From a candidate division WOR-3 bacterium (GTDB lineage: Bacteria > Hydrothermota > 32-111): a stretch of DNA of 64,000 nucleotides. Location of the stretch: assembly GCA_039804105.1 (NCBI GenBank), contig JBDRZU010000001.1, forward strand, positions 576,001 through 640,000, in the 5' to 3' direction. The translations under genes were made by a program, and so were the position numbers. The notes under the pieces are model-generated. The model saw only the letters and a program-made list of their open reading frames with translations, was not told the origin of the DNA and searched no databases. This document shows positions 1,171 through 4,014 of the stretch, piece after piece. How positions within the stretch are numbered: position 1 is the stretch's first letter; each line of letters starts with the position of its first letter.

Positions 1171-3837
1171 CACTCTCACTATCTTCTTTGTATATTCTAT
1201 GCCTCCAACATCTATTACCACAAAATATATCCCTCTCTTTATCTTTACATCCATTCCATATTCACCTCTAACCTGATATCCCATCTCCTTCTTCTCCACC
1301 ACTCGCCCTGTTATATCCATAACTCTTATCCTTACATCTCCATCTCCTTTCATCATATATTCTATTCGACCATTACCTTCATTATACCTGATATTGTTTA
1401 TCATACCTTCATACTTCTCTTCCACTGTCTCTTTCACTCCTGCCTTTATCCCTCCTTTCACCATCGATATAACTCCACCTTCCTCTTCATATTCATATAC
1501 CTCTATCTCTGCTACCCTATTTTTATCCCCCTTCTTCCTATCAATACTGATCTCTATTTTTTTGTCACCTGCATATTTCTCCTTCGGAACAACTATCTCC
1601 AATACCTTCTCTCCAGGTCCACCATAAATTACTCCATACACCTCTCCATCTATCTGAACAACTTCTGGTATATGTGGATTTTTATCTTCTATCTTTACCT
1701 TCACCAGATAGTTCATCTCTCCATTCATTCCCCCCACTTCATACACCATCCTCTCTATCTTAAAATTACCCTCAACATACTCCCTCAATGGACTTATTAT
1801 CACTCCATCTATCGTGTCTGTCGGCTCTCCACTCGAATATGGCAATACATCCTGACTGTAACTCCTCACCTTCGATTTAAATCTGTATTCACCATTACTA
1901 CCCTCAAACCAGCAATAATAAAACTTCGTCTCTATTAACCCTTTCTTATACACAGCATCCATACTATATATCGAATCATCTCCATCATATATAACATAAC
2001 TCTCCGGTGTCAATGTGTCTGAATATCCCGCCCTGTATCCTATTATCTTATCATAATCCCTTATATATGATGACTGCACCACATTCCTGCTTATTGGATA
2101 TCTGTTTATCCCTCTTCCAGAACTAACTCTACCATACTCCGAATTCCAGATCTCTGTTGTCCCATCTCCATTATCAACCTCCCAAATAAATATCGTAACC
2201 CTGTTATCATAATCTCCTGATGGATTCTGTGCCTTCTGATATGCTGGACTGATTAAATCAAAATAACTCCAAGTTGAATTTAACATATCCCATCTACTTC
2301 CAACAAGATGCCATCCCGTATCTATGCATGCAGCCATATAGGACTCTGATAAAGTAGGAAGTTCATAACAAGGCACCACCACAGGTGAAAACATTGGAAC
2401 GACTCCATCTTTTGTGCCTGTATATGTAAACACTGTATCAAATTCAATGTTCCCTATATCCTCATCACTCCATACACCTACTATCAAATCTCCTCTATTT
2501 AACCCTTCATACCTGTATCCTATATATCCACCTATCTTCCTGTCACTCTCCCAACTACCAAACATTACCGGCTCTGAACTCCACAACACAGGATATTGAC
2601 TGAATCCACCCCACGGTGAACTCTTCACAGCATACTCTATGTTCGTCCCATTATTCCACATCGCTATTAAACCCTCTGTCGTCTTCACAAGGGAAGGATT
2701 TATCCCCCTTCCTATCTTCTCAAGATTCCAGATACCTCCAAAATTATCACTATATCCATATATCACACTGTCTCCATCCGTATACACCATATGCATCCTG
2801 TCACTGTTCAACTCCCTTACAACCTTCCTTTGATTGTTCAACCCCAATCCATATCCACTCTCACTCCATATATAGGGGGTTATCTCTCCTGTATAGGGAA
2901 CAAAACCTTCTTTTTCAACTGTTAAACTAAGAGAAGATGTATTTTTCAAATAAATATCATAAAAACTGCTGCCATCTACATCGGTAAAATCTGAATACAA
3001 TAGTTGATTTTTTTGGTAAATATTTGTTTTTGCATTTATTACAGGAGATAAATCATAAAAATTTTTTACTTCTATTTTTTCTAAATATGAATTTAAAACT
3101 TTTCTTTCAGGAGTGAAATTGACAAGTAAAAAATTGTTTAGATCGGGGTAAAAATAAATATCATCTATCGAAACACTAAAAGTCAAATTATTACTTGTCG
3201 CCTGTGAAGTACTATACGCTCTTGCATAAAATCTGATTTTCTGGGGTACAGATGTATTTTCTATAGATACCAAGTCATTAATAATATATTTATTCCCATC
3301 TTTCACAATCTCTATCTGAAATTTAGGGAAATCCACTAAAGGCTCTAAAACATATATTGAAACAGTCGTGTCATAAACTAAAGTTTGATTTTGATATAAT
3401 TTAAAAATTAAATTGACAAATAAAAATTTATCTATATTTGTAAATTCTATAGTAAGTGAATCATTATTTTCAAAACATAAAGCAAAATTTAAAGAACTTT
3501 TGAAATCATCATCATAAACAACACCATAATCATCCTGGATTTCATAACCTAAATAACCGTTTCCCTCTCTTAGATATTCCTTAATATAAGTCGGAATTTC
3601 TTTTTCAAGACCTATAAAAGAAGTTTCAGGAAATTCTGTTAAACCAACTTTAAAATTTAAAACTGTATCCGTGAAATCAATGTTTCCATATTCATCATTA
3701 TAAGGTTTTTTGAATAATTCCCCGTTCCCATTTTGAAATATAATCCAGTAAGGGCTTATTCCAATTTCACCTTGAAAATCATCACTCATGAGATACTTTT
3801 CCTGAGCAAAAATGGAAATAGGAAATGAAGCGATCAT
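1165..3837 (-). CDS. Large secreted protein with T9SS type-A-like C-terminal sorting domain; likely true start ATG 3941 is frameshifted by an (AG)n tract
   Basis: C-terminus RVMDITGRVV...KRGIYFVVI...KKIVRVR; upstream in-frame residues NTIVLLSILF complete a signal peptide ending ISIFA/QE. Confidence 0.8.
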   Translation of the reverse strand: MIASFPISIFAQEKYLMSDDFQGEIGISPYWIIFQNGNGELFKKPYNDEYGNIDFTDTVLNFKVGLTEFPETSFIGLEKEIPTYIKEYLREGNGYLGYEIQDDYGVVYDDDFKSSLNFALCFENNDSLTIEFTNIDKFLFVNLIFKLYQNQTLVYDTTVSIYVLEPLVDFPKFQIEIVKDGNKYIINDLVSIENTSVPQKIRFYARAYSTSQATSNNLTFSVSIDDIYFYPDLNNFLLVNFTPERKVLNSYLEKIEVKNFYDLSPVINAKTNIYQKNQLLYSDFTDVDGSSFYDIYLKNTSSLSLTVEKEGFVPYTGEITPYIWSESGYGLGLNNQRKVVRELNSDRMHMVYTDGDSVIYGYSDNFGGIWNLEKIGRGINPSLVKTTEGLIAMWNNGTNIEYAVKSSPWGGFSQYPVLWSSEPVMFGSWESDRKIGGYIGYRYEGLNRGDLIVGVWSDEDIGNIEFDTVFTYTGTKDGVVPMFSPVVVPCYELPTLSESYMAACIDTGWHLVGSRWDMLNSTWSYFDLISPAYQKAQNPSGDYDNRVTIFIWEVDNGDGTTEIWNSEYGRVSSGRGINRYPISRNVVQSSYIRDYDKIIGYRAGYSDTLTPESYVIYDGDDSIYSMDAVYKKGLIETKFYYCWFEGSNGEYRFKSKVRSYSQDVLPYSSGEPTDTIDGVIISPLREYVEGNFKIERMVYEVGGMNGEMNYLVKVKIEDKNPHIPEVVQIDGEVYGVIYGGPGEKVLEIVVPKEKYAGDKKIEISIDRKKGDKNRVAEIEVYEYEEEGGVISMVKGGIKAGVKETVEEKYEGMINNIRYNEGNGRIEYMMKGDGDVRIRVMDITGRVVEKKEMGYQVRGEYGMDVKIKRGIYFVVIDVGGIEYTKKIVRVR

Positions 3838-3867
3838 AAATAAAATGGAGAGTAATACGATTGTATT

Positions 3868-3904
3868 AGAGAGAGAGAGAGAGAGAGAGAGAGAGAGAGA
3901 GAGA
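3868..3904. repeat. (AG)18A dinucleotide microsatellite within a signal-peptide coding region
   Basis: Direct reading: 37 nt of alternating A/G between SD-ATG 3941 and ATG 3837. Confidence 0.97.
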
Positions 3905-4014
3905 AAAAAGAAATGCTTTTAAAGTTTTTAATTTTTCTCATTTAACCTCCTTTTTTAGAATATTAAAAAAAAATGAAAAAAAGTCAAGAGAAAAAATATT
4001 TAACAGAATATAAC

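Follow-up and report, generated by a model that had tools for sequence, protein, structure and literature searches.

The CT tract at the 5′ end of gene A, the tract-bearing gene of a 1.81-Mb, 30% GC, 85% complete candidate division WOR-3 genome (G000), is very probably a translational phase-variation switch and one of a multi-locus family, as judged from sequence. One tract length in three would fuse the start codon to the gene and give a Sec-exported protein with a type IX secretion system (T9SS)-type tail; the other two lengths encode short peptides, from which no export would be expected. What stands out is that these candidate repeat switches are multi-locus, built of mixed units, biased toward OFF and found across species. 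The window is the whole 64,000-nt stretch of G000 that was analyzed; features are listed in Table 1.

The repeat tract and reading frames of gene A

The first-pass annotation had described a ribosome-binding site and start codon separated from an 890-aa open reading frame by a dinucleotide tract. On recheck, the coordinates of GGAGG and of ATG 3941 on the minus strand held, the distance from ATG 3941 to ATG 3837 was 104 nt with a recomputed frame offset of 2 nt, and the tract was recounted as a perfect repeat of 37 nt. Thus, in the allele as assembled, the Shine-Dalgarno (SD)-led ATG 3941 is out of frame with the 890-aa frame. The repeat unit is not a multiple of three and lies after the start codon and before the gene's body, and unit number sets the frame. 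When unit number was changed in silico, 17 units gave a 924-aa open reading frame, 18 units a 35-aa peptide with its TGA lying over ATG 3837, and 19 units a 25-aa peptide ending at a TAA directly 3′ of the tract, as had been claimed; the other in-frame unit numbers were 11, 14, 20 and 23. The signal peptide appears, by eye, to be cleaved after ..SIFA.

Table 1. Positions of gene A features, its neighbor and the further tracts of G000 (window coordinates unless a contig is named).
Feature	Position	Strand	Remark
Shine-Dalgarno GGAGG of the true start	3946..3950	-	two further alleles differ by one substitution
True start ATG 3941 and 35-aa out-of-frame peptide, TGA over ATG 3837	3834..3941	-	
(CT)18.5 repeat separating the signal-peptide n-region from the h-region	3868..3904; G000 C1:579868-579904	-	putative switch
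Signal peptide h-/c-region	3802..3867	-	read only at in-frame tract lengths
Variable N-terminal head, ~250 aa	3052..3801	-	no Pfam family
Beta-propeller of constant module, module residues 60-401	1849..2874	-	predicted model
All-beta domain of constant module	1477..1848	-	conserved DR..GNPNR motif
C-terminal domain of T9SS type A-like kind, with stop codon	1165..1350	-	
Hairpin at the A-B junction	1145..1171	-	5′ arm holds the gene A stop codon
Gene B 5′ part, FG-GAP propeller protein with own signal and tail	1..1128; G000 C1:574846-577128	-	runs off window
Second G000 tract, (CT)10	C1:530909-530928		
Third G000 tract, C10	C1:502137-502146		
Fourth G000 tract, 5.6 AGAAG units	C1:1229248-1229275		

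Genome-wide, CT/AG runs numbered 899 at 3 units, 62 at 4 and 4 at 5, with one each at 7, 10 and 18 units, and the gene A tract ranked first among all perfect repeats of 1-6-nt units; because run counts collapse in this way and the tract ranks first, it is not a product of chance. An (AG)7 run at 58736-58749 of the window (G000 C1:634736) lies in frame inside a 340-aa gene, where it encodes Arg-Glu codons and shows no sign of a switch.

The gene A locus was compared among related genomes. Five tract lengths were present in five assemblies whose DNA was otherwise near-identical, and in three of the five (one uncertain) the tract was in frame, a ratio that is not a frequency, as protein clusters favor the detection of in-frame alleles. 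G000 carries T6(CT)18 and G001 T4(CT)16, both out of frame and both in the frame that ends at ATGA; the G002 allele, whose tract includes two Ns, is of in-frame length, and a metagenome locus (L021) carries T4(CT)12, in frame. A protein from a different 61-kb contig (P0005) has exactly the N-terminus predicted for the 17-unit product, and another (P0007; MDI6701087.1, 921 aa) is in frame with the Leu-Ser run kept but the n- and h-regions diverged. Over 5,670 nt, the sole differences of G001 and G002 from G000 were the tract and, in G001, a single base of the SD. The lengths thus differ between assemblies instead of being fixed in frame, and homologues start elsewhere than at Met 3837; together with the in-frame alleles, this upholds the earlier proposal that the signal-peptide region contains a contingency locus of the slipped-strand type. 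Gene callers started four homologues (P0001, P0004, P0002 and P0023) at an internal Met, truncations that hide the signal peptides of family genes.

Might the tract length simply reflect an assembly or sequencing slip in a gene that is always ON? Long dinucleotide runs are error-prone, the G002 tract contains Ns, in-frame alleles exist, and the assembled contigs of four runs break at the tract, with none crossing 3860-3916. A slip is nevertheless improbable in the extreme: G000 has no other indel over the 5,670 nt compared with two genomes; short tracts at other loci (C8, (CT)7 and five AGAAG units) are out of frame too; identical OFF alleles recur in separate genomes (C10 in G000 and G002, C8 in G001 and G003); and error would leave unexplained why the tracts are confined to one family.

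Three states had been proposed for the locus, namely a secreted form, a re-initiated form with a truncated signal and a null; the ON and OFF frames stood, while the re-initiated form lacked both an SD and a usable signal. Translation from ATG 3837 would give an N-terminus with a peak hydropathy of 1.95 and a net charge of 0, compared with 3.16 and +4 for the in-frame 17-unit form, which qualified as a Sec signal by our own scoring, and the 28 other tail proteins that were scored all had N-termini of higher peak hydropathy (2.17-3.57) than the re-initiated form. Because it has no SD and its hydropathy is sub-threshold, the re-initiated product should not be exported, and for export the switch would be ON/OFF. 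It is possible that the two OFF frames differ in polarity on the downstream gene B; Rho is present in the genome, which makes such polarity plausible.

A family of repeat-bearing genes for putative surface proteins

Family members have a variable head, a constant propeller module, a T9SS-type tail and an FG-GAP gene downstream. A search of G000 tail genes for 5′ tracts, which the first-pass annotation had suggested, found a tract in 4 of 56 tail matches, exactly the four full-length family members of this genome, and in none of the other 52. In all four genes the tract separates the h-region from an SD-led start that is out of frame; three of these tracts are the top-ranked repeats of G000, and the remaining one is its longest C/G run. 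The end of a CRISPR-like repeat array at G000 C1:1038600-1038900 contains (ATAAA)4 in its degenerate last unit. Across three or more genera, five unit types occupy the same position, and G001, G002, G008, G011 and G012 each have 3-5 family members with a tract of their own in the signal region; 10 members with the 5′ end in hand have no tract. Strong matches were found in 11 of 150 genomes searched in the phylum, all within the family of G000; weaker relatives are present in the wider sequence collection. A metagenome scan for the pattern returned one locus, a scan of further genome contigs returned no new tract-bearing locus, and scans of viral sequences returned none, leaving carriage by phage unsupported in that collection. 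In two genera, homologous lipoprotein-like genes are preceded by a leader region with a poly-C run of 11 or 9, which lies 130-160 nt upstream (L133, G006:C33:3322; L142, G008:C116:15236), possibly a second, unrelated repeat locus.

The constant module (628 aa; model pLDDT 82) comprises a short all-beta domain, the propeller, an all-beta domain and the tail. The best fold match of the predicted propeller had a Z score of 27.2 (rmsd 3.0, 305 residues aligned, 7% identity). An enzyme function for the propeller was considered and dropped, as sialidase-like hydrolases, lyases and lectins tie in Z at 7-10% identity. The gene A tail scored 25.1 bits with TIGR04183, above the cut-off of 23, and 21.4 with PF18962, below the Pfam cut-off of 27. 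For the gene A head, the single-sequence model had a pLDDT of 34, and a lectin-like beta-sandwich is a weak lead (Atlas TM 0.55-0.61, below the naming bar; Atlas matches below 0.9 were taken as leads only). Heads of tract-bearing members thus include an LVIVD propeller, this possible lectin-like sandwich and an unnamed large/helical domain; heads of tract-free members are peptidase C25 or alpha/beta hydrolase. The constant module (window 1168-3051) and that of the AGAAG paralog are G-rich (G 0.29-0.30, GC 0.37-0.39) and the heads of both genes have a GC of 0.26-0.29, a difference in base composition consistent with differing origins of head and module.

To count frame states, 44 regions were fetched by homology and 33 by tract, and 27 alleles were retained in which the 5′ end was available, a tract followed the start and preceded the h-region, and the body was intact as far as the contig extends. 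Across nine genomes, these were distributed as G000, 4; G001, 4; G002, 5; G003, 1; G008, 5; G010, 1; G011, 3; G012, 4; L078, which cannot fuse, L117, which meets a contig end, the relics L127 and L129 and contigs starting inside the gene were left out. In all, 26 of 27 alleles were out of frame, the single in-frame allele being the one with Ns. Compared with an expectation of one-third in frame, the excess of OFF alleles gave P = 2.6e-4 for 27 alleles and P = 2.3e-3 for 21 loci with shared cassettes collapsed, both of which overstate significance because kin and shared cassettes are not independent. With in-frame alleles making up three of the five at the gene A locus, the bias is a property of the family and is not evident at gene A itself. 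In the tract-first control, 33 further sites with at least CT7 or C9 yielded three new out-of-frame family-type genes (L113, L116 and L128), the out-of-frame L117, cut by a contig end, and the two relics; the remaining sites lay inside ordinary in-frame genes or were intergenic. The relic L127 (G011:C50:139783) has an in-frame (CT)8, and its frame ends after 116 aa; in L129 (G004:C3:1626), a poly-C signal region, in frame, is joined to a broken FG-GAP gene with gene A deleted.

The strong OFF excess and these two relics are what would be expected if the repeats were merely hot spots for one-way decay, knocking out dispensable genes so that OFF alleles are young pseudogenes. Several features make decay highly unlikely. 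No further stops interrupt the gene bodies, which run to 900-1,300 codons. In the OFF orthologs L081 and L082 the poly-C is kept in both at a dS of 1.24 and a dN/dS of 0.09, and other pairs gave dN/dS values of 0.16-0.42, with one at 0.71. In addition, differing units are kept at one position across genera, the cassettes spread between species, and both relics carry in-frame tracts (n = 2, anecdotal). By these sequence measures, the OFF genes are intact and under purifying selection, with no decay. As most switches are OFF in the consensus with their genes intact, populations probably keep expression in a minority of cells.

Leaky OFF alleles, in which transcript slippage, ribosomal frameshifting or re-initiation would make OFF mean low, are a third alternative. 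ATGA or GTGA overlaps with an in-frame start occur in gene A, L056/L057, L058, L072, L077, L078 and L083, but ATG followed by A is common at 30% GC and the overlaps were counted without a null model. A downstream start carries a whole signal peptide in L054, L056/57, L072, L078 and L083, some with their own SD; the leader of L078 can never fuse; both out-of-frame alleles of gene A share the ATGA frame; and, with Rho present, gene B could escape polarity through re-initiation. Against these, the restart of gene A has neither SD nor usable signal, and the poly-C class has no downstream start bearing a signal. One unit would have to be removed to restore the frame in 9 alleles and two in 14; as both wrong frames occur, no fixed, programmed slip direction is implied. 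Such leakage is, on balance, unlikely as a general account, and ON/OFF switching of export is preferred. Some paralogs have a downstream start equipped with an SD and a complete signal, at which one of the OFF frames terminates; in these, the tract may tune more than it switches, by analogy with the pil1 leader peptide discussed below. The G009 paralogs L078, L088 and L102 share one start. The (CT)5 leader peptide of L078 ends over this start and cannot fuse, making it a pure leader-coupling variant, and the contig of L102 begins exactly at the shared start position.

MutS and MutL are both intact in these genomes. Loss of mismatch repair as the enabler of slippage was therefore discarded, and intact repair, expected to make slippage less frequent in tracts as short as C7-C8, counts against the switch reading.

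Cassettes, probable exchange between species and likely export

Gene B is followed, outside the window, by a third tail gene (C). In all seven loci checked the next gene encoded an FG-GAP tail protein, and in six of the seven a third tail or signal-bearing gene then followed. The similarity of gene B tracks that of the gene A constant module, standing at 86% when module similarity is also 86%. A complex prediction for the constant module of A with the propeller of B scored 0.00 and gave no answer. Hairpins resembling the one at the A-B junction are found after many family members, tract-bearing and tract-free alike, and the stop codon lies within the 5′ arm in only some of them; a ribosome-gated terminator at this junction was rejected, as hairpins also follow tract-free members and 9.5% of 873 background genes. 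No terminator was found between the leader and gene A, and a promoter scan found 18 sites compared with 15.3 expected, which leaves a specific promoter unsupported.

In a distant part of the window, identity to G000 was 90% for G001, 80% for G002 and 79% for G003. The G000 and G002 cassettes (~572-584 kb) are 100% identical except for the tract and one short stretch, and their flanks on the same contig are 67-82% identical; G003 has an empty site at this position. Four genomes share the poly-C cassette at 96-100% identity, with flanks that are 79-92% identical. From this mosaic of identities we infer recent homologous transfer of cassettes between species, which would be traded by homologous recombination; a residual chance remains that chimeric assembly of co-occurring species produced the mosaic. 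At window 9950-12367, the 5′ half of a gene encoding GH18, SH3 and tail domains diverges between genomes (76%), and in G001-G003, but not in G000, a family member adjoins this gene, which would make the site a second variable cassette site.

The T9SS label given earlier calls for caution. The type A-like tail agrees with it, as does SprA, which was above cut-off in G000 (C1:151600-155607) and in 19 of 20 genomes; searches of G000 (85% complete) for GldK and GldM found neither, the GldM control having matched nowhere. PorV-like (C1:419399-420346; E = 6e-40) and PorU-like (C1:971694-973907; E = 3e-67) genes of G000 were both below the curated cut-offs. On these matches, gene A product is likely exported by a T9SS-like route, and SprA, the PorV- and PorU-like genes and the 56 tails possibly constitute a reduced T9SS outside Bacteroidota.

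Among 24 listed sequencing runs, 15 held at least half of the sampled words of 1200-5500, and four of these may be source DNA; the 15 were labeled wastewater, sludge, sediment, hot springs, oil field or crude oil. No animal host appeared in these records, and a microbial host or partner is still conceivable.

Taken together, each family genome carries several of these candidate switch genes with a constant propeller and differing heads, each leading an FG-GAP cassette. Each surface protein would probably be made by a minority of cells as a hedge, being sometimes useful for attachment or substrate binding and otherwise a burden or a target for phages or predators. A broader interpretation is tentative and, on our assessment, somewhat short of even odds: that this free-living family, without an immune host, maintains a surface repertoire resembling antigenic variation, in which a propeller stalk would carry interchangeable heads, mostly silent cassettes would be traded between species, switches (CT, C, G and AGAAG) would have evolved independently under phage or predator pressure, export would use a motor-less T9SS-like route, and in some members the switch would have turned into a leader peptide tuning a coupled downstream start.

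Comparison with known systems

T9SS type A cargo has the same layout as gene A product, a Sec signal and a type A C-terminal domain, and G000 encodes SprA as well as the PorV- and PorU-like genes that score below the curated cut-offs; a review calls tail proteins restricted to Bacteroidota (PMC10202324), whereas gene A cargo is in WOR-3, and neither GldK nor GldM was found in its genome. In Streptococcus gallolyticus, pil1 is switched by transcription attenuation via a leader peptide (PMC3894217); gene A differs in that no terminator was found after its leader, which can fuse to the gene.

The genomes described here, which keep MutS and MutL, differ from Helicobacter pylori, which is not known to have MutS1/MutL repair. 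In H. pylori, a CT run in the 5′ coding region switches surface proteins of the hopH/oipA, hopZ and babA type by slipped-strand mispairing (PMC3960876); these proteins are unrelated to gene A, and H. pylori is a host-adapted pathogen.

Opa proteins are small outer-membrane barrels. No homology to them was found, since Pfam and NCBIfam gave the tail domain only and the model is a propeller. The closest likeness in organization is to Neisseria opa, in which several paralogous surface-protein loci each carry a frame-setting repeat in the signal region, with four loci per genome in meningococci, as in G000 (PMC13183285 and PMC5953494). The opa loci use one pentamer unit, whereas the WOR-3 family draws on five unit types, exchanges heads, includes a partner gene and encodes tail-secreted propellers of 900-1,400 aa. 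In addition, gonococcal opa is reported to show little interspecies recombination (PMC13183285), in contrast to the WOR-3 cassettes, which are shared between species with no animal host known.

To our knowledge, such a multi-locus repeat-switch arrangement has so far been known mainly from pathogens that dodge immunity. Literature searches, in which most subscription papers and supplements were outside coverage, returned nothing pairing WOR-3 with phase variation or type IX secretion; a search for phase variation, type IX secretion and homopolymeric tracts together, with most subscription papers likewise outside coverage, also returned nothing. The WOR-3 family is a candidate counter-case: it belongs to an uncultured phylum of environmental samples, carries its putative repeat switches at several loci and is biased toward OFF. 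It is thereby relevant to the puzzle that phase variation at multiple loci seems to be restricted to pathogens. In gonococci, a mean of 1.7 opa genes is in frame compared with 3.4 expected (PMC13183285). Like opa, the WOR-3 family has fewer genes in frame than one-third (1 of 27 alleles, with 3 of 5 at the gene A locus, where protein clusters favor the detection of in-frame alleles), and this shared deficit suggests that the bias needs no immune system.
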